A DNA stretch of 64,000 bases from the NCBI GenBank assembly GCA_030704845.1, contig JAUYKZ010000006.1:18046-82045 (forward strand), in the 5' to 3' direction. Positions 4,335-64,000 of this stretch are shown piece after piece (position 1 is the stretch's first letter; every line of letters begins with the position of its first letter). Below the pieces are notes generated by a model that worked only from the letters and a program-made list of their open reading frames with translations, did not search any database and was not told the origin of the DNA. Origin of the DNA: an archaeon. Its GTDB lineage: Archaea > Nanobdellota > Nanobdellia > Woesearchaeales > GW2011-AR9. Both the position numbers and the translations under genes were made by a program.

Positions 4335-5255
4335 CTAAATAAGCATAATTCCTTGCCCTGCCTCCTCTTTTAATTGTGACGCGAATCCTTCGCCGATATG
4401 AAATGAAAATGAGGAAAACACACTGGTTAATAAATCTAACAGTCCCGTCGGCGGTTGATAAGTAACATAAGAAATTTCTTGTAATCCATATTTTGTTCTG
4501 AGATATTGTTCTGCAGTTGAAAGATCTCCCAATTGATCAATTAATCCAAGGTTTAATGCTTCCACACCTAAATAAAATTCTCCTGTAGCCAAACGAGCAA
4601 TTTCTTCCCGAGGAATATTTCTGTTTTCTGAAACTTCGTCAACAAAAAATTCATGAATAAATTGGATTTTATTCTGAAGAATATTTTTTTCAGTTGGTTG
4701 TAGACTTTTGAATGGAGTTCCAAGATCCTTAAATGGTCCGGAAACGAGACGTTCATAACCTACCCCGTAATCTTCCATCATACCACTGAATTCTAAATAA
4801 GATGATATTACGCCAATACTTCCAGTGATTGACATCCTATTTGCAATAATATAATCGGTTGAAGAAGCTATCCAATATCCACCAGAAGCACCAGCTTCTC
4901 TGATAACAGCAACTGTTGGTTTGGTAGATTTTTTTACAGCCGATGCAATTTCATCTGATGCTACAGCTGAACCGCCGGGAGAGTTAATTTCTAGAATGAT
5001 AGCTTGAATATGAGAATCTCTTTCAGCATCCGCCAGAAATTCTGTAATTTGAGATGAAGAAACGGTTGTTTGACCAAGAGTGCTTGCTCCGCCATCTGTA
5101 GTAATTACTCCCTCAATTGGTATAATTGCAACGTTGCCTTTAGATGATGGCCCATCATCAAATAATATTGGGATTAAGAGGAATAATATAATTATGGGAC
5201 CAAGGGTATAAAGAATTATTTTAACGGTATCTCTCTTACGATCCCTCTTTTTCAT
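4335..5255 (-). CDS. sppA: Signal peptide peptidase SppA (S49 family, 36K type). Lies 3 nt upstream of the S8 protease gene, so likely the same operon.
   Basis: LEINSPGGSAVASDEIASAV and GASGGYWIASSTDYIIANRMSITGSIGV motifs; N-terminal TM. Confidence 0.8.
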   Translation of the reverse strand: MKKRDRKRDTVKIILYTLGPIIILFLLIPILFDDGPSSKGNVAIIPIEGVITTDGGASTLGQTTVSSSQITEFLADAERDSHIQAIILEINSPGGSAVASDEIASAVKKSTKPTVAVIREAGASGGYWIASSTDYIIANRMSITGSIGVISSYLEFSGMMEDYGVGYERLVSGPFKDLGTPFKSLQPTEKNILQNKIQFIHEFFVDEVSENRNIPREEIARLATGEFYLGVEALNLGLIDQLGDLSTAEQYLRTKYGLQEISYVTYQPPTGLLDLLTSVFSSFSFHIGEGFASQLKEEAGQGIMLI

Positions 5256-5352
5256 AGGAAAAGTTAAAAGAAAGAGGTATTTAAATGTTTCTTGGAAAAC
5301 CTCAGTGCCTAAAAGGGAAAGTTTTATAAGTAATTACTGAGGGGAAGATTTT

Positions 5353-5856
5353 ATGATATACAAATCACCAGAAGAACGCAGAATAAGAAAACTAACAGAA
5401 TGGGAAGAAAGAGTATCTAGAGAAATCTCCCCAAAGCTAGAATTCTTGAAAGAAGGTGCCAGAAATTCATTATTTAAAATCCCAATTAGCTACCAGATTT
5501 ACATTAAATATCACGAAACCCACATGCATGCTTTAGTTGCAAAACTGGAAGATTTTCAAGATGGACTTTTGGTCTATGTAGAGAGCGGTTCTCAGCATGA
5601 CGATTTACGATTATATCAAATTCCCAAAGTTCTAACAGAGGCTAGAGCCGAACCGGTAAGAGTTATAGGAAGCTACGAGAGAATAAGTAAGAGAATAGAA
5701 TCAATATTTATTCCGAGAGATGCAATATTATCTGCTTCTTATCAAGGAACATTTGAAGACTTGATTACAAATCCAAATATTAGCTTACGTTTACCAGAAG
5801 ATAAGAATTTGGCTGAGAAAATTCTTGAAGAGATTGAGAGATTAACGAATGCTTAA
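5353..5856 (+). CDS. Hypothetical protein
   Basis: Intact ORF with a TTTTATAA box ~30 nt upstream; no recognisable motif. Confidence 0.4.
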   Translation: MIYKSPEERRIRKLTEWEERVSREISPKLEFLKEGARNSLFKIPISYQIYIKYHETHMHALVAKLEDFQDGLLVYVESGSQHDDLRLYQIPKVLTEARAEPVRVIGSYERISKRIESIFIPRDAILSASYQGTFEDLITNPNISLRLPEDKNLAEKILEEIERLTNA

Positions 5857-6675: not shown

Positions 6676-6701
6676 AAAACATTTATAAATAACCACCTTC
6701 T
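6676..6701 (+). promoter_or_regulatory. Candidate archaeal BRE/TATA promoter for the ribosomal-protein operon (AAAACATTTATAAAT)
   Basis: Same AAACATTTATAAA motif recurs upstream of the rRNA operon and the L41e gene. Confidence 0.35.
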
Positions 6702-7254: not shown

Positions 7255-7872
7255 ATGGGAGATCCAAAAAAGTTTAGGAAAAAGTACGAAACTCCAATGC
7301 ATCCTTGGAAAAAGAATGTTATTGAAGAAGAGAAACAGTTAAAACGAGACTTTGGACTTAACACTCAAAAAGAAATTCTTATCGCTAAAACATTTTTAAA
7401 GAAATATAAAAATATTGCAAAAAGATTAATTGCTCAAAAAACAGCACAGGGATTAAAAGAAAAAGAGCAAATTTTGGGTAAATTACAACGCTTAGGTTTC
7501 CTTCCTGTTGGATCAGATCTTGATCAAATTCTAAATTTGGGTATAACTGATGTTCTTAACAGAAGACTTCAAAGCGTAGTAACAAAGAAAGGCTTAGCAA
7601 GAACATCAAAACAAGCAAGACAATTTATTGTACACAGACATATTGTTATTGGAGATAAAGAAATCACCTCACCATCATATTTAATTTCTCTTGAAGAAGA
7701 ATCTCTTGTTGGTTTTAAAACAAAATCAACTTTAGCTAGTGAAGATCATCCTGAAAGAGTTACCGTTGAAAAACCAAAAGAAGATAAAAAGAAAGAAATT
7801 AAAACAGAAGAACCTCAAAGAGAAGAATTTACTGAAGAAGAATTAGCTCCAGTAAAGGAATTGGAGATTTAG
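7255..7872 (+). CDS. rps4: 30S ribosomal protein S4 (uS4), with a Lys/Glu-rich C-terminal extension
   Basis: Archaeal S4 N-terminus [14 protein letters not shown]; S4 domain; operon order S13-S4-S11. Confidence 0.9.
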
Positions 7873-7876
7873 TATA

Positions 7877-8326
7877 ATGGCAAAGAAAGATGCAATAGAA
7901 GAACAAGTTGAACGACAAGATAGACCTATGAGGCAGCAAAGAATACGCTGGGGTATCGCTCACATTTTATCTACATATAACAATACAATCATAACCGTAA
8001 CTGACGTTACAGGAACCGAAACATTAGCAAGATCAAGCGGTGGACAAATTGTAAAATCTGACCGACTTGAAAGTTCACCTTCCGCAGCGATGGGAGTTGC
8101 AAAAAAGATTGCAGAGATTTGTAAAGAAAAAGGTGTTAACGGTTTATTTATCAAAGTTAGAGCAAGAGGAGGTCATAATGGACCTAAAACTCCTGGACCT
8201 GGAGCTCAAGCTGCAATTAGAGCATTATCAAGAGTAGGAATCAGAATTGGAAAAATTGAAGAAGTAACTCCTGAGCCACATAATGGTTGTAGAGTAAAAG
8301 GCGGCCGTCGTGGAAGAAGAGTATAA
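7877..8326 (+). CDS. rps11: 30S ribosomal protein S11 (uS11)
   Basis: [21 protein letters not shown] and C-terminal RGGHNGP S11 motifs. Confidence 0.9.
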
Positions 8327-15530: not shown

Positions 15531-15549
15531 AATGTTAACACCTAACTAA

Positions 15550-15588
15550 AAAAAGGTCTAAAGGACATAGTCCTTTCTCTACCTTTTT
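15550..15588 (-). terminator. Nested palindrome followed by a T-run on the minus strand. Candidate terminator of the NT/HEPN pair and/or an operator before the prepilin-like gene.
   Basis: AAAGGAC-ATA-GTCCTTT inside AAAAAGGT...ACCTTTTT arms. Confidence 0.35.
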
Positions 15589-15645
15589 TGCATATGAAAT
15601 AAGTAAGAAATGGACGTATTTAAAGGTAACTATTCGAGAGGTATT

Positions 15646-16634: not shown

Positions 16635-16682
16635 AGTTTAGATATGTAAACCCTTGTTAATATTTAAATGTTTTGGTTAGAT

Positions 16683-17700: not shown

Positions 17701-19515
17701 TTATATATTCAACGTAACTCCGGGTGATGACGAAGTAATTGAAGGTAATCTTTGGGAACCTTCATATTCAATTTCTCCTTTCTCTATTTCTTTTATGTCA
17801 GCACAAATTTCTGAGATGTCACTTCCAACAGAGGATTTTATGTTATGTTTAAACCGGATACATGCTCGCGTGAAATCTTCCGGCCTATATTTAGCAACGA
17901 TAGCCCCATCTGTATCTCCGTTATTTAATTGAATTACATCCGTACCAGTTATGAATTCTCCCCGTTTATACACTGGAAGAGCTTGACCAGATCCTTCTAG
18001 GAATATGTTGAATGAAACAGCTACCCCGTTCTCGTCAACGAATGGAGTGAATTTCTCATCCTGCGGAGCAGTTACTCTCCAATGAATTTTATAAAATTTA
18101 CCTTTAACTGGTTCTTCATCATCTTCGTTCTTGTAACAGAACTCATCATTTTTACATACGAAATCTTCCGGACAAATAAATTCTTGATCTGATTCCTCGT
18201 CAGGATTTCTGTCGCAAAGAATAAATGATTGTCTTGGCGATTTTTCTACTTGAAGTGCGCCAACAGATTGGTACGTTCCAGATTGAGTTCTGAAAAATGC
18301 AGTAGATTGTCCAGGGGATTCTGCTCTTTGCCGATCGTCATTTAAACAAACCGCTGAACTAGCGAATGCAGGAAGATCTGCAAAAAAGTTAAGAGTTTCA
18401 TCATTTGCATCTATCAACCAGCCATTCTTAGTTGCATCTGGGAAAATTAAATTTGATAATGATCTATAACTTCCTAAAGCTTGCAATGCTCTAATTCCGC
18501 CGCCAGCAACTTGACCGAAACCACTTTGACCTTTAACAAGAGTTTGGTATCCTTCGCTACCAATTCCTTGCCACCATCGAGTTTTTACTGAAGCAGATTC
18601 CGCATCTTGTCTTGCTGCTTCTGCGCGTTTTTTAGTAGCTGCGTATTCTGATGATTGGATTGATTCTGCATTTTGTTGCACTTCTAGATCAGATTTTACT
18701 TCTCCAGTTTTTGTTTCTCTCCATAATTCACCTTCTTTTACATAGGTTTTTCCGCCAATTGTTGCTTGCCAACCATCGACTGCTGACGAGAATAATTCTT
18801 TGTTTTCTTTTAATTCTTGTTGGGTGTGGATAAATGAATCTGCTTTCTCTTCATAACCAACGGCAAGACCTTCATATAAAGTTGCTGCATCGTTGTCTGA
18901 TAGTTTGAAGTTTTTGCAGGTTGGGGTGTGGAAACAATTGGTTGCTTGTTTTATTTCTTCACGATTTAAACCTTTTTTAGGAACAGTAGTAAGCCCCATC
19001 TCTTCTGCGATATTGGCGACTGCTATCCTTTCGGCATTATTTTGTTGTTTTAATTCTTCATCTATTTTAGCTGCTTTGGCTTGAAGACCGTTTGCTTTCG
19101 CTTTTTGTTGTGCTGCTTGGAGATTTTTTAAAGCTGTTGGGTTCGCCTTTATTTTGTCTGTGTATTCTTTTTGTTTTGCTTGATCGACTTGCTTACTATT
19201 TTGATAGAATATCCCATTTTCATCAACACTAATGTCGTCAAATAATGTTTCAGTAAATTGTGCTGCAACTTGAACACCACTCGGAGTAGTTGAAGACGCA
19301 GAAGCTTTTAACCATTCATCGAAAGTAGCTGGAATGGGGTTTGCTGGGGGATTTTTCACTCTTTCTTCCTTTTCATTTAACAACAAGCTAAGGGGACTAC
19401 CCTTAATAACAGCCTCTCCTGTTTCACCGTTAGACTTAACCTCTTCTTGAGCGACTATCAACGTACTTAAAACTATTACAAAGAGTACAAACATCATCGC
19501 TTTTTTTAAATTCAT
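17701..19515 (-). CDS. Sec-secreted protein (604 aa) with an Ala/Gln/Lys-rich coiled-coil segment and a Cys/acidic-rich C-terminal module
   Basis: Signal peptide MNLKKAMMFVLFVIVLSTLIVA; CxxxxxC clusters near the C-terminus. Confidence 0.55.
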   Translation of the reverse strand: MNLKKAMMFVLFVIVLSTLIVAQEEVKSNGETGEAVIKGSPLSLLLNEKEERVKNPPANPIPATFDEWLKASASSTTPSGVQVAAQFTETLFDDISVDENGIFYQNSKQVDQAKQKEYTDKIKANPTALKNLQAAQQKAKANGLQAKAAKIDEELKQQNNAERIAVANIAEEMGLTTVPKKGLNREEIKQATNCFHTPTCKNFKLSDNDAATLYEGLAVGYEEKADSFIHTQQELKENKELFSSAVDGWQATIGGKTYVKEGELWRETKTGEVKSDLEVQQNAESIQSSEYAATKKRAEAARQDAESASVKTRWWQGIGSEGYQTLVKGQSGFGQVAGGGIRALQALGSYRSLSNLIFPDATKNGWLIDANDETLNFFADLPAFASSAVCLNDDRQRAESPGQSTAFFRTQSGTYQSVGALQVEKSPRQSFILCDRNPDEESDQEFICPEDFVCKNDEFCYKNEDDEEPVKGKFYKIHWRVTAPQDEKFTPFVDENGVAVSFNIFLEGSGQALPVYKRGEFITGTDVIQLNNGDTDGAIVAKYRPEDFTRACIRFKHNIKSSVGSDISEICADIKEIEKGEIEYEGSQRLPSITSSSPGVTLNI

Positions 19516-19829
19516 ACTATCTTAATCCCATTCTTTACTGCTTCTTTAACTATACCAATCTCTTTCTTTCGTTTATTAAATTCTTCAGGAGTTAAACATA
19601 CAAAATCAACAGGATATCCTAGATCCCACATCAGATATAATGGTGGAGATCTCTTTAAATGTCTTTTTCCTCGGAATTTTGATGAGACCATAATCAAATC
19701 TACGTCACTATCTTTTCTCACCTTTCCAGTTGCCCTTGAACCGAATAAGTACATTGAGCGTAAAGGGTACTCCTTAGAGATACTTTCTGCAAAACCTTTC
19801 AAAGATCCAATTAATTTTTTTGTATCCAT
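19512..19829 (-). CDS. Minimal nucleotidyltransferase (MNT antitoxin-like)
   Basis: LFGSRATGKVRKDSDVDLIMV motif. Confidence 0.75.
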   Translation of the reverse strand: MDTKKLIGSLKGFAESISKEYPLRSMYLFGSRATGKVRKDSDVDLIMVSSKFRGKRHLKRSPPLYLMWDLGYPVDFVCLTPEEFNKRKKEIGIVKEAVKNGIKIV

Positions 19830-20188
19830 TGTAAAATTATTTCCGTAAGTTTTAGGATATATTCAGCTTCTTTTTTATTTACTTTCTCAAAAGGTAATTC
19901 ATTACCTTCTGGATATCTTACTTCCACATATACTGGGTTTATTTCAGCGCAGGCTTTAATAATATTGTCTGGTGCTCCAACTTCCCGCGCTAATTTTACT
20001 AAATCATGTATTCTTAATAAATCTTTATTTTTCTGCAGATAATGATATTTAAGAGATTTTTCAACCGCTTGTTGACAAAGTAAGGCCGTAACATAGTAAT
20101 CACCAGAAATTAAACTATTCTTAGCACTTTTAAGATCTCGTTTTGCTTGCTTCAACCATACCTCAACATCATTTCTCATTATTGACAA
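19811..20188 (-). CDS. HEPN domain protein (toxin-like partner of the MNT)
   Basis: AQQAVEKSLK ... LRIHDLVKL HEPN signature; overlaps both neighbours. Confidence 0.7.
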   Translation of the reverse strand: MSIMRNDVEVWLKQAKRDLKSAKNSLISGDYYVTALLCQQAVEKSLKYHYLQKNKDLLRIHDLVKLAREVGAPDNIIKACAEINPVYVEVRYPEGNELPFEKVNKKEAEYILKLTEIILQWIQKN

Positions 20189-20754
20189 TATACCTCTACA
20201 ACCTTAAAAACGTTTCCATAAATCAGATGATCCTTCCGTATCTCTATCGCTAAAGCATTCTTCCTACGTAAACTTTCAGCAAATCCTTTCCAAGTGCTAA
20301 ATTCTATGTTTATTTCCCGTGGAAAGACTCGTTTTGCCTTGTTAATATCATCTTTCTTTCCGCCAATAACAATTAAATCCAAATCTGAGCTTTCTTTTTG
20401 TCTTCCCTTTGCAAAACTTCCGAAAACAATTATCGTCTCTGCAAAAGGAATCAAGCCTTTCATAATCAATGAAAATTCACTCTCCTTCAAAAGAAAAGAG
20501 GCTTTATAAGTCTCCACAATCTGAATCATTTGCTTCGCGAGAACACTTTTCCTATTAAGAACATATTTTTTGTTCCTTCCCTCTTTTGTGAAGAGAATAA
20601 TTTTATCTTTTACTAACCCATTCAATATTGTAAGAGCATTCTGCGGACTTGTTCCTACCGCCCTTGAGATTTCTCTGCCAGTGAAAGAAGCAGAGTAGTC
20701 CCTCGTGTAAAGCGCAAGAATGTCCATTTTTTTAGACATATGTCTATTTTTCAT
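20179..20754 (-). CDS. wHTH-fused nucleotidyltransferase (MNT-like)
   Basis: VFGSFAKGRQKESSDLDLIVIGG motif; N-terminal HTH. Confidence 0.7.
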   Translation of the reverse strand: MKNRHMSKKMDILALYTRDYSASFTGREISRAVGTSPQNALTILNGLVKDKIILFTKEGRNKKYVLNRKSVLAKQMIQIVETYKASFLLKESEFSLIMKGLIPFAETIIVFGSFAKGRQKESSDLDLIVIGGKKDDINKAKRVFPREINIEFSTWKGFAESLRRKNALAIEIRKDHLIYGNVFKVVEVYCQ

Positions 20755-21184
20755 TGATTTTCTTCCTCAATTGGATAATATCAAGCGCTTCTACAATAGC
20801 ATGACATTTAACTACAAATTTCTTCACTTCAGGTAAATTATCCAATTCTTGCTTCTCTAAATAATACTGAGCCCGTATTCTTTTATATTTAAGATTAGAC
20901 ATAAAGCTGTAATCATTTCCATTAAACTCATCAATTATTGTCATCAGCTCTATCGTGCAGTCATGGATTTCTGATTTAATCCCGGCTTTCATCAAGATGG
21001 AATATAACGCATTATAGCACGCATAGTACGCCATTATAACATCCCATTTTGATCCAGTTCCAGAAATCTGCTGTAAGGTTTCTTGCGCCTCACTAAAATA
21101 CTTCTCAGATAAATTCTCATTCTCTTCAACAAGTTCAATTCCTTTTTTCTGTTTTAAACACCAGTCAATCTTACTTCGCGTCAT
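20744..21184 (-). CDS. HEPN-like helical protein, first gene of the HEPN-NT-HEPN-NT tetrad
   Basis: SEIHDCTIELM region; size and synteny; 11-nt overlap with the NT gene. Confidence 0.45.
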   Translation of the reverse strand: MTRSKIDWCLKQKKGIELVEENENLSEKYFSEAQETLQQISGTGSKWDVIMAYYACYNALYSILMKAGIKSEIHDCTIELMTIIDEFNGNDYSFMSNLKYKRIRAQYYLEKQELDNLPEVKKFVVKCHAIVEALDIIQLRKKINEK

Positions 21185-21278: not shown

Positions 21279-24200
21279 TTATCCTCCAGTTAACTCATTT
21301 AAATCTATATTCTCAGCCATGTCACAATATGGAAGTTTAGTTGCATCGGGCGTTTGTTCAATAGCTCCAATTACCGTATCTGTAATATCTACTAAGATGT
21401 TAAGACCGGTAGTAATTTTACACAGTGGAATAGCTGCTGATGTTCCAGCCGGATCAAAACAAAGATCTGCACAAGCGGCCATTTCTATCCATTTAATAAC
21501 TCCAACTAGAGATGTGAACGCTGCTTTGATAGCTTTTCCGATATATGAAATACTTCCCAGAGGAGTGAAGTCAAATAATGGGCCGTAAACGAATTCACAC
21601 ATTTGGATGTCATATAAAGCATCACATCCTTCAAATGTAGTAAGACCGGATGGAACTTCACGACCATAACATACAATTTTTCTACACATAACTTGTCTTG
21701 CTTTTTCTGCTTGATATAATAATCCTGGGACACATAAACCCAAACCAGAAGTATAAAGATTTTCATATAATGATGTTGCTGGAATACCCAACAAACCTCT
21801 TCCAGAAAGAAGATTATAAGTTTCTAGAATATTGTCTTGGAATTGACCATATGCACCCAAATTTCCTGGATCTGGACTACAGCTTAAAATATCGATAGGA
21901 ATCTGGATATATTCTACAAATTCGAATGCCGTTTTCTGGCCAACTTCTAAGGTTAAACACTGACCACGTAAGGCCGTTCCAACACCAACTGCTCCACCAC
22001 CAGTCTTCTCTACAACTGTTGCAACTCCAACTAAATTACCGCTTACCAAATCAATAAATCTACTAGTCTTATCAATTATTGAAAGAATGTTTCCAATATA
22101 TCTAGCCCATTCAAGCGCAGTGTTAATATAACTCAATGCATCAAGGAATTCAAACCAATCTTCATTTTTCAATGCCCTTACTTTCTTCGCTAAATTTTCA
22201 TCCAATGCACCAATAGTACTAAATCCAAAAGGAACTTCAACTTGCACTTCCTGTAATTCAGGAGAAGCAATAGCATCTTTACCAACTTTAGAAAATACTC
22301 TTAATTGACATGAATAAGACACAACAGCTTCCGCAAATCCGCCTTCAGTAGCAAACATTTCTCTGCCATTGAATGGAGAAAATTCAAGAATCATTGTAGC
22401 CGTAGGTTCAATCTCACCGTCAGGATAATTTCCACCATATAATATAGTCCGGCTTACTTCAGGACCGCTAGAACTTTCGTTACCTTGATCAACAGGCGAA
22501 CAACCAACTAGATCTGCACGTAACATTTGCGCTTGCGGATGTCCGGCTCCGAATTTAAGTTCAACCGGCATTCTAGTATAAGTTAACTCGGTAGTATCTA
22601 AATCAATGAAATCTATTAAAGGACGTGGAGCTCTTTGAAGTTCCCAGTAATCAGGATTTTCTTCCGTAACTAATCCCAATAAATTAATTTTAAATTTCCC
22701 ATCTCTTCCAGAAACAACATTCTTAGATTCACCTTCCCAATCAATAGCCTTAGCTTCATTACCAGCAGTATCATGAACAAGAATCTCAACATCCGCACTT
22801 GGATCTGGACCGGATTTCATTGGAGTTGTTTCAATGGAACATACCCATCTTGCTTCGGAACGGACACAACTTTCTTCATTGAAAACTTGCCATCCGTCAC
22901 CTAATCCTCTACTAGCACTTCCTTCAGGGAAAGATAATTCTGAATCAAGAACGATATCTTTTGTATTTACTAATATATTAAGTCCGTTTGTTTCTCTTAT
23001 AGTGAAATCAATTCTTAACCGATCATTACTTTGGAAGAAATCTTTCACGCCAATTAAATCTGAAACACCAAATAATTCTACTTTCTCTATTACAGGTGCG
23101 GAAGCATCGGAGAATAATTGTACGTCCGGTGAACTTCCTTTATTACCCACGTTATCTTCAAACACAGATAACCCAGTTATCGCAACATCTGTACTTCCAG
23201 CAAAACTGACATCCCAGTAACAGAACAATTTTCCGTCTTCCGTTTCTGAACATTCATCAGGAGCTTCGGCTGCTCCCATGCCAAATGCACTTAACCTTGC
23301 TCTAATTCCGTTCTCGGTGATTCCTGCTCCTTGATCTCTAACTAATAAGATAATTCTATTTTCTCCTTTCATGATGAAACTCTTGTCATCAAATATTTGT
23401 TCAGTACCCATGAATTCAATCACGGGAGGAGAAGTATCTACCACAAAATCACTTCTGCCAATTCTTTGTTCAACCGAATTGCCAAACCTATCGGTTACAG
23501 TTACGGTTAATTCTAAACTGGTAGATGGCTGAATCTCAACATTCTCCCAAGTACAATGATATAAACCTAGTTCTTTATCATCTTCATAACAATTTGCGGG
23601 AGTTCTATCTAAATCAACTTGAATCGATGATGCAGTTACGCTAGCTAAATTATTTTCTTTAACATCAAGAGTAATATCCGTTTTGATAGAAAATTCGCCG
23701 ATAAATTTTCCTAAATCAGTGAAATTAAGAGTTCCGCCAAGAATAACCGGGTCAATGAAATCGCTTCTGAAAGAACCGATTGCAGGATGTTCAGTAATAT
23801 GTCCTAAACGATCTTCAGCAGTTATCTTTATTCTTTTAACTCCTTCCCCAGCAAGTTCCGCTTGAAGTTTTCCACCAAATTCAGCAATATTACTATATTT
23901 AAATTCTTTCTGACCAACTTCTAATCTTGAACCACCAATGGTTTGTAAGATTTGGTTAGTATCGGCGTCAATAATTTCAATCTTGCTTATGCCCACTGAA
24001 GGAATGTCTCCCCGGGTATCTTTAACAAGGAAATCAAGTTCAACTTCACCAAGAAGATTTTGTTTTAATTTAGTTATCTCAACTGTTGGAGCAGTTCCAT
24101 CTGCTCTAATTACATCTGCGTTTTTTACAGTTGCTGGATTTAAAACTTCATTTAAGTAATGATAAACAACTTCAAACAAGTATGCATCTTCACGAACACC

Positions 24201-24515
24201 ATCCGTTAAAGGACTGATATATTCACAAGAAACTCCTTGCGGTGTACTTGCGCAAGCATTGAATGGTGATTCTTTACTTCCAACTTTCATTACAACATTC
24301 TTTGGATCAATATTTTCTTCAGTTGCCGAAGTAATTAAAGCGTTAACTTTCCAAGTGTCCCCATCAGCGTCAATAAATTTGTCAATGTTAGCTTCTCCAG
24401 AATTTTTAGTTATGCTAACAAGTGGAACAGCCATAACACTTGCACTGTAAACAGGTAGAGTTACAAATAAGAAAATCATCCACAAACCTACCACTTGCAA
24501 CGCTCTTTTTTCCAT
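21279..24515 (-). CDS. Giant Sec-secreted protein (1078 aa), function unknown
   Basis: Signal peptide MEKRALQVVGLWMIFLFVTLPVYSASVMA; long uninterrupted ORF. Confidence 0.6.
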   Translation of the reverse strand: MEKRALQVVGLWMIFLFVTLPVYSASVMAVPLVSITKNSGEANIDKFIDADGDTWKVNALITSATEENIDPKNVVMKVGSKESPFNACASTPQGVSCEYISPLTDGVREDAYLFEVVYHYLNEVLNPATVKNADVIRADGTAPTVEITKLKQNLLGEVELDFLVKDTRGDIPSVGISKIEIIDADTNQILQTIGGSRLEVGQKEFKYSNIAEFGGKLQAELAGEGVKRIKITAEDRLGHITEHPAIGSFRSDFIDPVILGGTLNFTDLGKFIGEFSIKTDITLDVKENNLASVTASSIQVDLDRTPANCYEDDKELGLYHCTWENVEIQPSTSLELTVTVTDRFGNSVEQRIGRSDFVVDTSPPVIEFMGTEQIFDDKSFIMKGENRIILLVRDQGAGITENGIRARLSAFGMGAAEAPDECSETEDGKLFCYWDVSFAGSTDVAITGLSVFEDNVGNKGSSPDVQLFSDASAPVIEKVELFGVSDLIGVKDFFQSNDRLRIDFTIRETNGLNILVNTKDIVLDSELSFPEGSASRGLGDGWQVFNEESCVRSEARWVCSIETTPMKSGPDPSADVEILVHDTAGNEAKAIDWEGESKNVVSGRDGKFKINLLGLVTEENPDYWELQRAPRPLIDFIDLDTTELTYTRMPVELKFGAGHPQAQMLRADLVGCSPVDQGNESSSGPEVSRTILYGGNYPDGEIEPTATMILEFSPFNGREMFATEGGFAEAVVSYSCQLRVFSKVGKDAIASPELQEVQVEVPFGFSTIGALDENLAKKVRALKNEDWFEFLDALSYINTALEWARYIGNILSIIDKTSRFIDLVSGNLVGVATVVEKTGGGAVGVGTALRGQCLTLEVGQKTAFEFVEYIQIPIDILSCSPDPGNLGAYGQFQDNILETYNLLSGRGLLGIPATSLYENLYTSGLGLCVPGLLYQAEKARQVMCRKIVCYGREVPSGLTTFEGCDALYDIQMCEFVYGPLFDFTPLGSISYIGKAIKAAFTSLVGVIKWIEMAACADLCFDPAGTSAAIPLCKITTGLNILVDITDTVIGAIEQTPDATKLPYCDMAENIDLNELTGG

Positions 24516-24544
24516 ATTTTCTAACCTACTAATGTTAATCTATT

Positions 24545-24647
24545 TATATACTAAAAGGAATTAGGTTTCTAGACCTAATTCCTTTGGTATGTATAAAGGG
24601 ATAGTTTTCCCTTTTACATACAAAAGGCTTCTGCCTTTTAGTATATA
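24545..24647. repeat. 103-nt element bounded by perfect 14-nt inverted repeats (TATATACTAAAAGG / CCTTTTAGTATATA), containing a perfect 13-bp-arm palindrome and a second imperfect palindrome
   Basis: Read directly; terminal motif TATACTAAA shared with the 31.4-kb and 49.5-kb repeat elements. Confidence 0.4.
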
Positions 24648-24649
24648 CC

Positions 24650-24686
24650 AAAATTCATAGATTTCTGTTCGGAATCTATGAATTTT
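24650..24686 (-). terminator. Perfect 14-bp-arm hairpin overlapping the stop of the 840-aa gene
   Basis: AAAATTCATAGATT-9nt-AATCTATGAATTTT followed by T-run. Confidence 0.4.
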
Positions 24687-27198
24687 TAGTATATGTTGGT
24701 TCTAACGATGCTCTAACTTCCGGTCTTCTTGAAACTTCACCAAGCAATCCTGAAATTTGCATATCTTCAATGATTCTTCCCCCAGCCATAACTGAAGTGT
24801 CTTTACATACATCAAATAAACATCCCACACCAGGAATACAACTGTATCCGCCACATTCTTTCATTGGCACTTTAACTTGTTCTGGAATTGAAACAATATC
24901 TTGCACAGGGACATATAAAGTAATCTCATCCGCAGTATATAATTGTTCAGGAGTTATCGTTAAATAAGTAGCTGGTGTTTCCCAGGCAATATTACCCGTA
25001 ACAAAACCTTCGGAAACACTTTCATCAAGAGTGAATTTTTCTTCTTTATCATAACCTAGGATTGAATAAGTTGAACTTCTAGTTTCAGCTGGAATTCTTA
25101 CTTGCTGAGATGTAGTTGCGAATCCACTTATTTTATACACACCAGGAACTAACTGGACATTACTTCCAGCAGAACCTTTAACAGCTACCGAAGCAACAAA
25201 CTCATTACTTATAACTTCACCATGGAATCCGCTCACTCTTTCAAGAGTTAAAAGAACTTCTTCATCATCTCTTAAGTCAACAGATCTGTCATTCAAGTAA
25301 TAGTCATTATATTTAGTGATACTTTGATTTACTTCAAGAGATATAATTGGGGTTCCGGCACCAAGAACACTAGAACCGCTATCAAAGAAACATTGTTCTG
25401 CTCCTTGCGAACAAGATATATCACTGTAAGGAATAAAACTTACCCCATCGCCTGCTTGAGTTGGACCTGATCGGGTATATTTACATTCTAAAGCACGGAT
25501 ACATTTCTGGACTGGTTTTTTCTTAATATTAACATTAATCGTTTTGATTCTATCCATTTCTATAACTTTTTCAGTTGGTGCATTTGCAACCGCATATCCC
25601 AGAACAGCTGGCTGATCTTGATAATTATATGTGTCTATCGGATAGAAATTTGATAAGTAACCTAAAGCAGCAAAATTAATAACTCCACCATATACCGCAG
25701 GATATTTACTTTCTAATTCTCCACTTTGATCAGTTAACCCCATTTCACAACTTTGATCATCCGGAATTGTAAATCCGATTTTAACAGCTTCAATTGGTTC
25801 TTTAGTGAAAGAATCAACTACGACCGTTTTAAGCAATTCGGTATCTCGATGTGCTTCATCACAAGATATAGGAGATATTCCTTTTGGATAAACTTCCCGA
25901 ACAGATTCATCCTCAGCAGGTCTGTTGTTTCTAATATTAGATTCTAAGGCCATAACAAATCTGTAACCTTCGCCATTAAATGCAGCTTCATCTTTAATTG
26001 TAACAAGGACAGGGTAACTGACATCATAATGAGTTTCATATTGTTGATTTCCAAATGATAAGATTTCATAATTAATGTAAATACTGTTTGGTTTTATGAT
26101 TCCATCTTCGCTGTTTGTTTTAAAGTAAGGATTCCAGCCAAAATAATCAAATGAAACGCCCACATCATCAGCTCCACTTAATGGAAGAACCATATTATCT
26201 ACAACATGCTGAGCTAACCGTTCAGATTCAGGGAATGTTGAATAATAAAATCTTTCACTACCTAAAAATCTAAGCATTGGGACATAAGAGGTTAACAATC
26301 CTTTATATTGTTGTTCAACTGTATCTTCCTGCCAAGATAAAGAAGAAAATAATTGGTATCCGGTATCTGAAGTTGGAGGAAGCGCTTGAGCATCTTTCCT
26401 AGAATAAACTGAAATCAATTCCAATCCTTGCCGTTCCAAGAAATTAAATTCTTTTTCAGCATTTGCGATTTGTTCAGCAACTTCATAATAATGTCTTAAA
26501 TCTAACGGCACTCTTACAAAAAATACATTTAAATCAGTTGAAGCATCTCCTATTGAAACACTAACATCCATGTCCATTCGGAAATCAACCAAACCATCGC
26601 CGATAGTAACTTTAATCGTTTTATCTGGGTCTTGCACAACGTCAAATCCTTGAGAAGTAAATGGAGCGTAATCGTTTAGGCAACCATCAATTCTTTCATC
26701 AATAAACCTTTCAAGTTGAGATTCCATGCTTAACGCCGGATCATCTGCTTTTTTAATTTCTGGTTTTAAAGATGAGATTGCAATATTTTTAGCAGAATTT
26801 GGAGGCGTGTTATAATGCCAGTAAGGAACTTTAAGAGGTTCAAGATTTAATCCATCGCTATCTGTTGGATTAGTTGAAGAAAATTCCCCAGCCAACTCTG
26901 GATAGATATAACCGCCTTGATCTCCTAGAATAAGTAGCCCTCGTTTTGCAAGTTGTCCAACACATTGTTCGGTATAAGATTGAACCGGTCTAAATTCTTC
27001 GGGAACACTACTTAAAATTGGCAAACCTTCAGAAGTAAATTTTTGTTGGATAGAGCCCGATGTAAAATAAAGTATCCCTGCGAATGTAAAAAGAATAACG
27101 ATTCCGATAATAATAAATATCGTGATCTGCCCTTTCTTTGAAGAGAAGCCAAACCCTCCGGTATTACATCTACTAATACTACCTCTTTTTATCACCAT
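24676..27198 (-). CDS. Giant protein (840 aa) with a class-III prepilin-like signal peptide, paralogous at the N-terminus to ORF 14199..15530
   Basis: ...SSKKG|QITIFIIIGIVILFTFAG; palindromic TTTATAAA ~27 nt upstream of the ATG. Confidence 0.6.
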   Translation of the reverse strand: MVIKRGSISRCNTGGFGFSSKKGQITIFIIIGIVILFTFAGILYFTSGSIQQKFTSEGLPILSSVPEEFRPVQSYTEQCVGQLAKRGLLILGDQGGYIYPELAGEFSSTNPTDSDGLNLEPLKVPYWHYNTPPNSAKNIAISSLKPEIKKADDPALSMESQLERFIDERIDGCLNDYAPFTSQGFDVVQDPDKTIKVTIGDGLVDFRMDMDVSVSIGDASTDLNVFFVRVPLDLRHYYEVAEQIANAEKEFNFLERQGLELISVYSRKDAQALPPTSDTGYQLFSSLSWQEDTVEQQYKGLLTSYVPMLRFLGSERFYYSTFPESERLAQHVVDNMVLPLSGADDVGVSFDYFGWNPYFKTNSEDGIIKPNSIYINYEILSFGNQQYETHYDVSYPVLVTIKDEAAFNGEGYRFVMALESNIRNNRPAEDESVREVYPKGISPISCDEAHRDTELLKTVVVDSFTKEPIEAVKIGFTIPDDQSCEMGLTDQSGELESKYPAVYGGVINFAALGYLSNFYPIDTYNYQDQPAVLGYAVANAPTEKVIEMDRIKTINVNIKKKPVQKCIRALECKYTRSGPTQAGDGVSFIPYSDISCSQGAEQCFFDSGSSVLGAGTPIISLEVNQSITKYNDYYLNDRSVDLRDDEEVLLTLERVSGFHGEVISNEFVASVAVKGSAGSNVQLVPGVYKISGFATTSQQVRIPAETRSSTYSILGYDKEEKFTLDESVSEGFVTGNIAWETPATYLTITPEQLYTADEITLYVPVQDIVSIPEQVKVPMKECGGYSCIPGVGCLFDVCKDTSVMAGGRIIEDMQISGLLGEVSRRPEVRASLEPTYTKNS

Positions 27199-30897: not shown

Positions 30898-31392
30898 CTA
30901 TCCCTTAACCTTCTTAACCTTTAATTTCTTTAATTTCTTGGTTATAGGAATTGTTTGATGACAATGTTCGCAATCTACAAGATATGCTTGGGCACCTTTG
31001 AAGGATTTTCTTTGATATGTCGTAGTTCCTTCACCATCTTTGCCACAATATGGGCAGGTATATTTTGCTTCTAAAGTCAAAGATTCTTCATGTTCTTTTT
31101 TCTCTTCCTCATACCCGCACGAATGACAAACATATTTAATTGCCCTAGTTTTAACCTTACCTTTCTCAATTGGTTTGCCCATTTTATCTTTTTTACATTT
31201 AGGACATTCTTTTCGATAAACCCAAGCTAGAACATTTCCATCATCAATAGAACGATTACTAAAGTAAAGACATTCATCCATTGACGTTGGTACCTTAAGA
31301 GCCATATTTTCAAAATAACCCTGATTATATTTAAATGTTGTTGTTAAGTTACTCCAAGCCACTAGTATACCTATTGAATAATAGACTTTCAA
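30898..31392 (-). CDS. Zinc-ribbon protein with four CxxC pairs
   Basis: CPKCKKD, CHSCGYEE, CPYCGKDG, CEHCHQT. Confidence 0.5.
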   Translation of the reverse strand: MKVYYSIGILVAWSNLTTTFKYNQGYFENMALKVPTSMDECLYFSNRSIDDGNVLAWVYRKECPKCKKDKMGKPIEKGKVKTRAIKYVCHSCGYEEEKKEHEESLTLEAKYTCPYCGKDGEGTTTYQRKSFKGAQAYLVDCEHCHQTIPITKKLKKLKVKKVKG

Positions 31393-31407: not shown

Positions 31408-31502
31408 TATACTAAAGTGCCAAAGCTTTCGAACTTATTTTTGGCACTTGATATATATATAAAATGCGTTAATATATTCGAAATCTAACGCATTTTAGTA
31501 TA
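31408..31502. repeat. Copy A of a ~95-nt element with two internal hairpins and TATACTAAA...TTTAGTATA termini
   Basis: Near-identical (2-nt indel in an AT run) to the reverse complement of 49461..49554. Confidence 0.7.
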
Positions 31503-37800: not shown

Positions 37801-37960
37801 GATGTGTTAAATGTACATATGGCTCATTACTATGATGTGATAGCGTATAAGATTAAACCCATACTCCATCATGTTCAACCATTGCCGCCAGGATTTGGCC
37901 ATTCCTGAAGGCACCTATTGCCCGTAACCTCTTTTGAGAGATTTTCGGGAACATTAAATG

Positions 37961-38054
37961 TGGACCCGACGGGATTTGAACCCGTGGCCTCCTGCTTTCT
38001 ATGCTTGTTAAACAAGCGTGCAAGGCAGGCGCTCTCCCCCTGAGCTACGGGCCC
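37961..38054 (-). tRNA. tRNA-Ala(UGC) with a 21-nt intron at canonical position 37/38; CCA not encoded
   Basis: GGGCCCGTAGCTCAGGGGGAGAGCGCCTGCCTTGCA[CGCTTGTTTAACAAGCATAGA]AGCAGGAGGCCACGGGTTCAAATCCCGTCGGGTCCA. Confidence 0.8.
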
Positions 38055-39820: not shown

Positions 39821-39840
39821 GGTTGTTTATAAATGTTTCC
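39821..39840 (-). promoter_or_regulatory. Candidate rRNA operon promoter (GGAAACATTTATAAACAACC on the minus strand)
   Basis: BRE/TATA-like; ~190 nt upstream of the 16S 5' end; motif shared with the rps13 and rpl41e promoters. Confidence 0.3.
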
Positions 39841-40206: not shown

Positions 40207-40295
40207 CTTTTGCTGTGGAGAAGTAATCCGTTTATAAATGTTTCTACGAGCAATTGTGTATCTTACCCTAAACACTTAACCTTCCGATAAGTTGT

Positions 40296-49460: not shown

Positions 49461-49554
49461 TATACTAAAATGCGTTAGATTTCGAATATATTAACGCATT
49501 TTATATATATAAAGTGCCAAAAATAAGTTCGAAAGCTTTGGCACTTTAGTATAC
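49461..49554. repeat. Copy B of the ~95-nt hairpin-rich element, inverted relative to copy A
   Basis: Reverse complement matches 31408..31502 except for a 2-nt AT-run indel. Confidence 0.7.
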
Positions 49555-60103: not shown

Positions 60104-60205
60104 AAGATTATTTGTTATGATTGATTTTAAAAAGATTGTTGTGATTGAGCGTTAAACTGGAAAAGAACAGAACTATCCAAAACATTTAAAAAACACCACC
60201 TTACA

Positions 60206-61794: not shown

Positions 61795-64000
61795 ATGGTA
61801 GACAAAAAACAAGTTAGATTAGACATCAAAGGAATTCATTGTGCAAGTTGCGTTTCAAAGATAGAAAATGCTCTAAATAAAAAAGGAGGGATCACTAAAG
61901 CTACAGTGAATTTTGCCACATCGAAAGCTAGCATAGAATATTTGTCAGATAAAATTTCCACAAGAGAAGTCAAAAAAGTTATCGAAGATTTAGGATATAC
62001 TGCTTTAGAAACTGAAGAACGTAATAAAGGTGAAGCTATTGCTAATTTACGTATTATTGGTATGGATAATCCACACTGCGTAAGCATGATCGACAATGGT
62101 TTAAAAGTTCTCGAAGGAATAATATCAAAGAAGTTATTAGTTACCGGAAAAGCTGCAATAACTTATGACCCAAAAAAAGTATCATTAGATAAGATTAAGA
62201 AAACAATTAAAGACATAGGTTATAAAGCATTGGAAGGAAATGCACCACAAGACACAGAAAAAGAAGAGAGAGAGAAAGAAAGTCTTGATCTCAAACGCAG
62301 AACAGTTATAGCAATTATTCTTTCAATTCCATTATTATATATCGCAATGATTGCCCATCTTTTCGGATTACCTTTACCGCTCTTCATTAAAAACAACACA
62401 GCTATCTTTCAATTATTGTTAGCTACACCCGTATTATTTGCCGGATCAATGTTCTACACTCAAGGGATTGGATCGCTAATCAAAACAAGAACAGCCACCA
62501 TGGACACTTTAGTTGCCATAGGTACGGGAACGGCATACGTTTATTCATTGATTCAATCAGTTCTTTTATGGACCGGAAAAATTGCAATGGCCGAATTATA
62601 TTATGAAGTTGCTGCTCTGCTGGTGGCATTTATACTTCTGGGAAGATTCCTTGAAGCAAGAGCTAAAGGGAAAACTTCAGAAGCGATAAAGAAATTGATC
62701 GGTTTACAACCGAAGAAAGCTCTGGTAAAAAGAGGAAATAAAGAAGTTGAAGTTCCAATAGAAGAAGTTGTCGTTGGAGATTTGGTCATTGTTAAACCTG
62801 GACAAAAAATTCCCGTTGATGGAACAATTGTTGACGGTCATTCATCTGTAGATGAAAGCATGATTACCGGAGAAAGTATCCCCGTTGAAAAAAGTAAAGG
62901 AAGTAAAATTATCGGAGCAACTATTAACAAAAATGGTTCGTTCACATTTAAAGCCGAAAAAATTGGTGCAGAAACTGCACTTGCTCAGATTATCAAATTA
63001 GTTGAAGAAGCTCAAGGAAGTAAAGCACCAATTCAAAAATTGGCAGATAAAATTTCCGCGATTTTTGTGCCAACAATTGTTTCCCTAGCCGTGATTTCAT
63101 TCTTGGTATGGTACTTCTTAGGATTCGGTGTGTCATTCGCCTTAACTACTTTTGTTGCAGTTTTAATCATCGCTTGCCCATGTGCTTTAGGATTAGCTAC
63201 ACCAACCGCAATAATGGTTGGAACAGGTAAAGGAGCAGAGAACGGAATTTTAATCAAAAGTGCAGAAGCTTTACAGAAAGCTCAATCCGTCGACACAGTT
63301 GTGTTCGACAAGACCGGAACTTTAACTAACGGTAAACCAGAAGTTACAGAAGTTATTTCATTAAACGGTTTCTCTGAAAAAGAAGTTCTTCAATATGCCG
63401 CTATCGCTGAAAAAAGAAGCGAACACCCATTAGGAGAAGCTATCGTAAAAGAAGCTCACAGAAAGAAAATTACCGTGAATGATCCTAGCTCGTTCAAAGC
63501 AATTACCGGGAAAGGTTTAGAAGCCAAACATAACGGGAAAACTATTTACCTAGGTAACAGAAAATTGATGGAAGAAAAAAATATTCCAACCAAAAGTATC
63601 GAGAATGATTTGCAAAACCTAGAAAATGAAGGAAAAACAGCGATGATTCTAGCCGTTGATAAAAAAGTTGCAGGAATTATTGCAGTTGCTGACACAGTAA
63701 AAGAACATTCAGCAGAAGCTGTAGAATTACTAAACAAATTAGGATTAGAAGTAATAATGATTACCGGAGATAATAAACGAACTGGACAAGCTATCGCTAA
63801 ACAAGTTGGAATTAAAAACGTTCTAGCGGAAGTTCTTCCGGAAGATAAAGCTAAGGAAATAAAACGATTACAACATCAAAAAAAGAAAGTTGCAATGGTC
63901 GGAGATGGAATAAATGACGCGCCAGCATTAGCCCAAGCAGAGATAGGTATCGCAATCGGGTCAGGTACAGACGTCGCCATAGAATCGGCAGATATAGTTC
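61795..64000 (+). CDS. copA: Heavy-metal (Cu+/Ag+) P1B-type ATPase, 3'-truncated by the window end
   Basis: Two HMA domains ([12 protein letters not shown]; GMDNPHCV), CPC motif [27 protein letters not shown]. Confidence 0.85.

Follow-up and report, generated by a model that had tools for sequence, protein, structure and literature searches.

The window analysed here is the whole stretch of 64,000 nt taken from the archaeal contig JAUYKZ010000006.1. It has a GC content of about 33% and carries a 16S-tRNA(Ala, with intron)-23S operon. Comparison of its proteins and of related contigs places the host among the DPANN archaea, of the Pace-/Woese-/Nanoarchaeota type. At about 24.5 kb, a dense nest of palindromes separates two large genes, an 840-aa gene and the 1078-aa gene downstream of it. 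This nest, and its relationship to short repeats at two other sites in the window and to insertion sequences (ISs) of the IS630 family, is the subject of the present analysis. Both genes beside the nest are encoded on the minus strand, which corrects an earlier note on this DNA. At present, the 840-aa stop codon and the ATG of the 1078-aa gene are separated by 160 nt. No Pfam identity was found for either protein, while the 840-aa protein is a member of a well-conserved DPANN family. The features of the locus, in the order in which they are transcribed, are as follows.

24676-27198, minus strand: 840-aa gene, upstream of the 1078-aa gene, with its TAG stop codon at 24676-24678.
24676..24693, minus strand: last codons of the 840-aa gene (TAT ACT AAA AAT TCA) and the TAG stop, encoded by unit U1 from the last base of the Tyr codon onwards.
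24646..24691, minus strand: unit U1, 46 nt, TACTAAAAATTC...GAATTTTGGTA, a single hairpin with arms at 24650-24663 and 24673-24686 and a TA on both sides.
24644..24645: TA common to U1 and U2, at the centre of the palindromic junction GTATATAC.
24549..24643, minus strand: unit U2, 95 nt, TACTAAAAGG...CCTTTTAGTA, with three hairpins.
24541..24548, minus strand: TATA-like box TATAAATA, about 30 nt upstream of the 1078-aa ATG, composed of a TA flank and presumed ancestral sequence.
21279-24515, minus strand: 1078-aa gene, with its start codon at 24513..24515.

On the transcribed strand the locus thus reads ...ACA-TA-(U1, 46 nt)-TA-(U2, 95 nt)-TA-TAAATAG..., and the outer flanking TAs of the array are found at 24692-24693 and 24547-24548. 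U2 together with its flanking TATA corresponds to the 103-nt unit of the earlier note, and the perfect 14-nt inverted repeats at its bounds (24545-24558 and 24634-24647) are present as claimed there. So are the perfect palindrome with 13-bp arms inside it (24554-24566 and 24573-24585), a second, imperfect palindrome (19-nt arms at 24581-24599 and 24609-24627, 84%), and the perfect hairpin with 14-bp arms that lies over the 840-aa stop codon and is the hairpin of U1. A third TTTAGTATA was likewise confirmed at 24685-24693. A subdivision of U2 into three degenerate mini-units (m1, 24617-24645; m2, 24587-24621; m3, 24547-24591) is suggestive, and the inner arms of U2 resemble the terminus weakly (p = 0.013-0.10).

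The terminal motif of these units, TATACTAAA with TTTAGTATA as its inverted partner, is strongly over-represented in the window. Eight exact copies of TATACTAAA are found where 1.24 are expected, a count reached by none of 100 shuffled sequences (0/100), and the inverted pairs are clustered. Seven of the eight exact copies (7/8) fall in three clusters at 24.5, 31.4 and 49.5 kb, all of them intergenic, which bears out the proposal that the nest has its terminal motif in common with elements at the two latter sites. One-mismatch variants of TATACTAAA are not enriched in the window (31 versus 36 expected), and TATACTAAA is therefore a specific repeated sequence rather than a loose consensus. The eighth exact copy, a TTTAGTATA at 7868-7876, is located at a gene junction (the stop/start region of 7255-7872 and 7877-8326). 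As it has neither a partner nor a hairpin, it probably occurs there by chance. At positions 2-15 of the window, TATATGCTAAAAGA also has no partner and apparently lies in coding sequence, as judged from sequence reading and Logan gene calls. Roughly 10 kb of this genome outside the window, past its first position (Logan contigs, including L133), were searched as well and contained one unpaired TATACTAAAAA and no further units. At the other end, contig L134 runs 1,119 nt past window position 64000. The palindrome AAAGGAC-ATA-GTCCTTT at 15.55 kb, which had been put forward as a relative of the nest, is without TATACTAAA termini, looks like a terminator and does not belong to the family. It is enclosed by an outer stem, AAAAAAGGT/ACCTTTTTT (15548-15591), and a T7 run comes next on the transcribed minus strand.

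The clusters at 31.4 and 49.5 kb each contain one copy of a two-hairpin unit.

31408..31502, minus strand: 95-nt copy, consisting of the 93-nt unit plus a 2-nt TC indel in its central TA-rich linker, with bounds TATACTAAA/TTTAGTATA.
49461..49553, plus strand: 93-nt copy, 100% identical to the copy in L122, a Candidatus Pacearchaeota metagenome-assembled genome (MAG).

The 2-nt indel is the sole difference between the two copies, and their similarity ends exactly at TATACTAAA and TTTAGTATA. Further copies are found in L122 and in two JGI metagenome contigs, L123 and L125, the latter with one substitution. The 93-nt unit is therewith known from five unrelated contexts at 98-100% identity, with the sharp boundaries TATACTAAA/TTTAGTATA common to all; among these contexts are a position between divergent genes and one beside the 3′-end of a convergent gene. 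A 20-mer of the unit has one match in 185,579 species genomes (a species-representative set without the window's own genome), three in the JGI metagenomes and none in viral contigs. One of the three metagenome matches, in L124, is spurious: it lies in a coding region, and L124 was rejected as a carrier of the unit. The pattern TATACTAAA-N60-90-TTTAGTATA was also rejected as a detector of the family. Its matches listed in viral contigs are single and on unrelated contigs, and such chance hits show that a bare inverted 9-mer pair has no diagnostic value in very large collections. In the short-read Logan assembly of the window's genome, contigs break inside both copies of the 93-nt unit (31433 and 49527), at the same internal k-mer, as expected of a multi-copy repeat in de Bruijn assembly. 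Wherever units are adjacent (L122, L123 and the 24.5-kb locus), they are joined as ...TTTAGTA-TA-TACT... via a single TA. The terminal inverted repeats (TIRs) of the units are perfect over 9-14 nt and, in the 93-nt unit, extend with imperfect similarity to about 28-36 nt. Between its two halves, the 93-nt unit shows compensatory changes in the stems. None of the units (46, 93-95 and 95 nt) contains an open reading frame (ORF).

L122 also carries a larger element, about 2 kb from its 93-nt unit. This element (4532-5647, 1116 bp) has 35-nt TIRs at 83% identity and a TA on both flanks, and its coding region comprises a helix-turn-helix (HTH) orfA, an A8 run and a DDE orfB. The conceptually fused 345-aa orfA-orfB product reaches 205.7 bits with the NCBIfam model NF033545 (IS630 family transposase; cutoff 100) and matches DDE_3 (101 bits) and HTH_33/32/23 in Pfam. 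By its transposase model, TIRs and TA flanks, L122 4532-5647 is classified as an IS of the IS630 family. A further IS630 copy of the same subfamily, in the metagenome contig L132 (122-2258), adjoins a different transposase gene (DDE_Tnp_1), which suggests clustering of ISs in that contig. The ends of the short units were aligned with the left end of the L122 IS in register from the terminus, over positions 10-36, with the 9-mer used for selection excluded; the matching positions and the outcome of 5000 shuffles are given below.

Left end of the 93-nt unit: 18/27 positions, 0/5000 shuffles.
Right end of the 93-nt unit: 15/27 positions, 10/5000 shuffles.
Left arm of U1: 15/27 positions, 12/5000 shuffles.
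Upstream unit of L123: 17/27 positions, 0/5000 shuffles.

The left arm of U1 carries an IS630-type terminal repeat, including a TCCGAA box 20 nt from the terminus, and agrees with the left end of the L122 IS at 22/28 positions, ungapped from the terminus. In a scan of the whole 64-kb window for IS ends, U1 came out on top, scoring 19 where the background did not exceed 14. Both ends of the IS have a T[TC]CGAA box at a distance of exactly 20 nt from the terminus, as do a second IS copy, both ends of the 93-nt unit, the left arm of U1 and the L123 unit. A leave-one-out position weight matrix (PWM) over positions 11-30 gives p <= 1e-4 for the box-carrying ends (1/10000 for U1). The terminal repeats of the 93-nt unit, the U1 left arm and the L123 unit are thus homologous to the ends of an autonomous element. 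The IS ends themselves are not hairpins, whereas the terminal repeats of the short units sit within hairpins. Upstream of the box-carrying unit of L123, positions 1-96 hold two small hairpins (CGGAAAC-AAT-GTTTCCG and CAGAAAT-CGCT-ATTTCTG), and the contig opens with TATATGCT; the array in L123 may extend beyond the contig.

We read the palindrome nest, with a probability of roughly 0.8, as a tandem array of non-coding miniature transposable elements with inverted repeats (MITEs) of, or derived from, an IS of the IS630/Tc1-mariner type, inserted at one TA. The earlier note had offered two alternatives for the nest. Its suggestion of a TIR-bounded family of miniature elements with different contents is upheld by the homologous termini, the TA flanks, the dispersed identical copies and an ancestral gene end that is restored on removal of the units. 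Its other suggestion, a recurring operator for one DNA-binding protein, fails on a different promoter motif, the lack of a fixed distance to start codons, a unit that supplies a stop codon and a relative whose corresponding site is without the motif.

The pre-insertion state of the locus can be approached through its relatives. In the nearest one (L126, 61% identity), the order of the genes for methionyl-tRNA synthetase (MetRS), an 830-aa protein and a 1099-aa protein is kept, and the two large genes are 30 nt apart, versus 160 nt in the window; this orthologous 30-nt spacer is without the TATACTAAA motif. The C-terminus of the 840-aa protein is equally informative about the site. Among 119 homologues, 97 end exactly one residue after P-x-[FYW], with ...EPx[FY]x-stop as the end typical of the family, and the window protein instead ends in ...EPTY-TKNS-stop. 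When U1 and U2 are removed and one TA is kept, the reconstructed gene ends in ...SLEPTYK-stop and is followed by a 24-nt spacer to the next ATG. A model with duplication of TATA leaves a 9-residue extension and the wrong C-terminus, and a model with no duplication truncates the conserved aromatic residue. The TATAAATA box is present also in the reconstructed pre-insertion sequence. Restoration of the C-terminus is supportive of the insertion of MITEs, not proof of it. TA flanks are found on every unit and on the L122 IS, neighbouring units have one TA in common, and TA is also part of the palindromic terminus; that the TA was duplicated on insertion would follow from the reconstruction at the protein level. 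The predicted empty-site junctions would be GAACCAACATATAAATAGATTAAC at 24.5 kb, CCTTTTTTTCTACATAGAAAGG at the 49.5-kb site and TTGATTTATTTATATCCTTC at the 31.4-kb site. At 31.4 kb the trend is the same, with a spacer 291 nt long in the window versus 1 nt between the orthologous genes in the relative, but this spacer also holds a terminator-like hairpin and a promoter and does not make a clean reconstruction.

IS630/Tc1-mariner elements insert at TA dinucleotides and duplicate the TA. Copies of IS630-NC1 are reported to have TATA at both ends (PMC11544213). A unit of the form 5′-TACTAAA...TTTAGTA-3′, flanked by TA and with the box 20 nt from its ends in well-preserved members (the 93-nt unit and U1), could be moved by a transposase acting in trans. 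An IS630-family transposase (HTH-HTH-DDE) would bind the box (TAGAATCCGAACA / TAGATTTCGAATA), cut at the termini and integrate the unit at a TA, which would be duplicated. Each insertion would recreate TATATA, and later units could land on a flanking TA, giving arrays of the form ...TTTAGTA-TA-TACTAAA.... At 24.5 kb, the 46- and 95-nt units would have landed on the TA of a Tyr codon, one codon before the 840-aa stop. Their insertion would have changed the C-terminus from ...EPTYK-stop to ...EPTYTKNS-stop and lengthened the spacer from about 24 to 160 nt. We infer the mobilisation in trans, the duplication of TA, the role of the box as a transposase site and the order of insertion.

A number of observations tell against an origin of the nest from IS630-derived MITEs. 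Neither the 64-kb window nor the additional 10 kb or so of the same genome encodes a transposase of any kind. The three close homologues of the L122 orfA (88-96% and 72% identity) belong to ISs with the ends TATAGTATAA / TATAGTTAA, not TATACTAAA, and the exact parent IS is therefore not among these closer copies. Units of 30-50 nt are, moreover, very short for synapsis by a DDE transposase. U1 and U2 are each single-copy, as no further copy of either was found in all the sequence that could be reached. The right arm of U1, the ends of U2 and the small L122b unit have no significant internal similarity to IS ends (p = 0.07-0.96). U2, the 103-nt unit of the earlier note, is the weakest member of the family, because it has only its terminal 10-14 nt in common with the others, and the PWM for the internal box gives p = 0.24 and 0.07 at its ends; without the box, U2 is probably a decayed or composite relic. 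As to the reconstruction, the probability of reaching the correct outcome by chance is estimated at about 3-4%, the result fits equally well an insertion that is target-specific, with one TA being part of the element, and no empty site was found at the DNA level.

A more compact basic module is conceivable within the same family, though doubtful. It would be a hairpin of about 46-48 nt, with overlapping terminal repeats and one near-palindromic box (TTCGAA) in its loop; two such modules, head to head, would make up the 93-nt unit, and four, progressively decayed, the 24.5-kb locus. Such a module would perhaps be recognised as an extruded hairpin or cruciform and stack on its own TA flank, and it may have been co-opted to split a formerly tight gene pair, acting as an insulator or attenuator. 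If true, it would be an unusually compact IS630-derived element in a streamlined DPANN genome.

Stable folding raises the question of whether selection on the transcript shaped the hairpins, which would then be RNA elements in the first place (small RNA genes, terminators, or structures for processing or stabilisation), with the common termini as a part of that RNA; we consider this unlikely. The 185-nt region is indeed very stable as RNA, with z = -10.2 and -10.6 against shuffles for the two strands. T4 runs follow several of the hairpins, a few G-T wobbles are found on the transcribed strand (in the outer stems of U1 and L122b and in the L125 variant), and the compensatory changes between the halves of the 93-nt unit would also suit selection on an RNA stem. 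However, both strands and the single-stranded DNA (z = -6.6 to -9.9 per unit) fold equally well, as DNA palindromes would. The best match in Rfam 15, to a plant snoRNA model, reaches 33.8 bits against a gathering threshold of 64 and is a generic hairpin match. The orientation of the 93-nt unit to neighbouring genes is inconsistent over the five contexts, and an RNA origin leaves the in-register termini and the match of the box to IS630 repeats unexplained. A later function as an attenuator between the two large genes, acquired by exaptation, would be compatible with these observations.

It is very unlikely that the units belong to the single-strand hairpin elements of the REP/RAYT (repetitive extragenic palindromic sequence/REP-associated tyrosine transposase) or IS200/IS605 (HUH Y1) type, with inverted doublets like those of REPINs and BIMEs (bacterial interspersed mosaic elements). 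The resemblance lies in a conserved 9-mer beside a hairpin, in inverted doublets of about 93 nt whose halves are related by compensatory stem changes, and in mosaic arrays in intergenic space, and the reconstruction is equally compatible with target-specific insertion without duplication. Elements of the IS200/IS605 type, in contrast, are without terminal inverted repeats and TA flanks, and the units described here have true TIRs and a TA on both flanks. Their terminal 28-36 nt are homologous to the TIRs of an IS630 element of DDE type, in which the box has the same offset, and no Y1/HUH (Y1_Tnp) or TnpB was found in any ORF of the window or in any fetched locus. REP, BIME and REPIN sequences (PMC2817692) are likewise intergenic hairpins with a short conserved foot motif, inverted doublets of about 100 nt and mosaic arrays. 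Unlike the present units with their IS630-like ends, REPs are substrates that HUH Y1 transposases recognise in the form of single-stranded hairpins, and they do not have DDE-type TIRs or TA flanks.

The promoters of the host bear on whether TATACTAAA and the palindromes serve as operators of a regulator, or as a special class of promoter, for adjacent surface-protein genes. A recurring motif, AACATTTAWAWA, has its end 23-27 nt ahead of start codons and is found upstream of the rRNA operon (16S gene) as well; it is probably the BRE (TFB recognition element)/TATA promoter of the organism, which would imply mostly leaderless mRNAs. Its sites in the window are listed here.

5278-5289, 16661-16672, 31328-31339, 39826-39837 and 40231-40242, minus strand: AACATTTAWAWA.
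6678-6689 and 60181-60192, plus strand: AACATTTAWAWA.

A reading of TTTAGTATATA as an archaeal BRE/TATA promoter was rejected, as a different motif precedes the genes and near-matches are not enriched. Comparison with the AACATTTAWAWA promoters suggests a putative TATA function for the TATAAATA box. An operator role would be in keeping with the rightmost motif, which abuts this TATA-like box about 30 nt upstream of the 1078-aa ATG, and with the orientation of both window copies of the 93-nt unit, which is that of their flanking genes. It is nevertheless highly improbable. Host promoters use AACATTTAWAWA at its regular distance from start codons, one-mismatch variants of TATACTAAA are not enriched, and whole 93-nt units are 98-100% identical in unrelated contexts in which their position and orientation to genes vary. 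One copy of the motif lies inside the 840-aa coding sequence, the orthologous 30-nt spacer of the relative does not have it, and the units have termini homologous to the ends of IS630 elements. That palindromes simply accumulated by chance in AT-rich intergenic DNA has a negligible probability: although an 18-base inverted 9-mer pair is in itself not diagnostic, as the unrelated single hits among the matches listed in viral contigs show, chance would have to yield eight motif copies where 1.24 are expected, folds with z of about -10, identical 93-nt units in five contexts and IS-end matches at p <= 1e-4.

Several known systems resemble the IS630-derived MITEs proposed here. Stowaway and Tc1-mariner MITEs prefer TA targets and are flanked by TA, have short TIRs, can be cross-mobilised despite TIRs that are only partly similar, and frequently nest in TA-rich targets. 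The present units are like these eukaryotic elements in their TA target preference and flanks, short TIRs and nesting, but they reside in an archaeal host and are much smaller. In Sulfolobus, the IS630-type ISC1048 mobilises the element SM1. Several archaea have known MITEs (PMC10969869), and archaeal genomes also contain IS630 elements (PMC13343696). Among prokaryotic IS630-derived MITEs, of which MITEEc1_IS630 is an example (PMC11602168), we find the same short, non-coding units with IS630-like TIRs and TA flanks, dispersed in intergenic regions, associated with breaks in short-read assemblies and without a transposase of their own. The units described here differ from them in their DPANN (Pace-/Woesearchaeota-type) host, in TIRs that lie within hairpins with a putative box in the loop, in their size of 46-95 nt and in their tandem stacking on a common TA. 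A 2024 census counts DPANN genomes, one of them a Woesearchaea genome with 105 MITEs/Mb, among the archaea densest in MITEs (PMC11602168). The abundance of MITEs in DPANN is thus already known, for the same broad lineage and class of element, and that paper is a census without mechanistic assignment. In the literature compared, which excludes the supplementary catalogue of PMC11602168, no description of this MITE family was found. Its hairpin-embedded TIRs, very small units, stacking on a common TA and clean reconstruction at the protein level are of some specialist interest.

Other features of the window and its surroundings were recorded alongside the array. At 24437-24515 (minus strand) and at L126 8524-8560, the 1078-aa protein and its 1099-aa orthologue both start with M-x-K-R-(A/G)-L-Q, followed by a hydrophobic stretch. 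This shared N-terminus resembles an archaeal class III (prepilin-type) signal, consistent with the label 'prepilin-like'. Between the 1078-aa gene and a 105-aa gene (19811-21184, minus strand) lie a 146-aa gene of unknown function, a 191-aa nucleotidyltransferase gene and a 125-aa HEPN gene. In the nearest relative (L126), the syntenic locus is without these three genes; together they look like an inserted MNT/HEPN toxin-antitoxin-like module. Near the 31.4-kb cluster, the 164-aa ORF at 30898-31392 (minus strand), which has a TTG start, is over-extended: the alignment with its orthologue (74% identity) begins at residue 30, so that the true start is the ATG at 31305, 23 nt past the promoter motif. 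Between the 16S and 23S genes, the tRNA-Ala gene at 37960-38054 (minus strand) is 95 nt long, a length that makes an intron probable. Contig L133, from the same genome, has an ORF-free region of about 275 nt (18338-18612), some 4.0-4.3 kb outside window position 1, with a GC content of 0.43-0.45, versus 0.33 nearby. The region is closed by a helix, GCCAGCA...GCUGGCG, with T5 after it, its RNA fold has z = -3.4, and it gave no Rfam match at the gathering threshold or at E <= 0.1. It contains GAAAGUCCGGG, which we take to be similar to the RNase P CR-I, and the region may be a divergent non-coding RNA gene.

Elements of this kind are a common form of selfish DNA and involve no new biological principle; what is unusual here is an insertion that can be cleanly reconstructed. 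DPANN archaea are poorly studied and have small genomes, and their repeats are usually lost in fragmented MAGs. The units would explain short-read contig breaks in this lineage and could be used as strain markers. The 24.5-kb locus would serve as a worked example of a MITE insertion that rewrites the C-terminus of a conserved gene and separates it from its neighbour. With a defined terminal sequence, a candidate box at a fixed offset and a related autonomous IS630 element in hand, an unexplained cluster of palindromes would become a specific, testable family of mobile elements in DPANN archaea.

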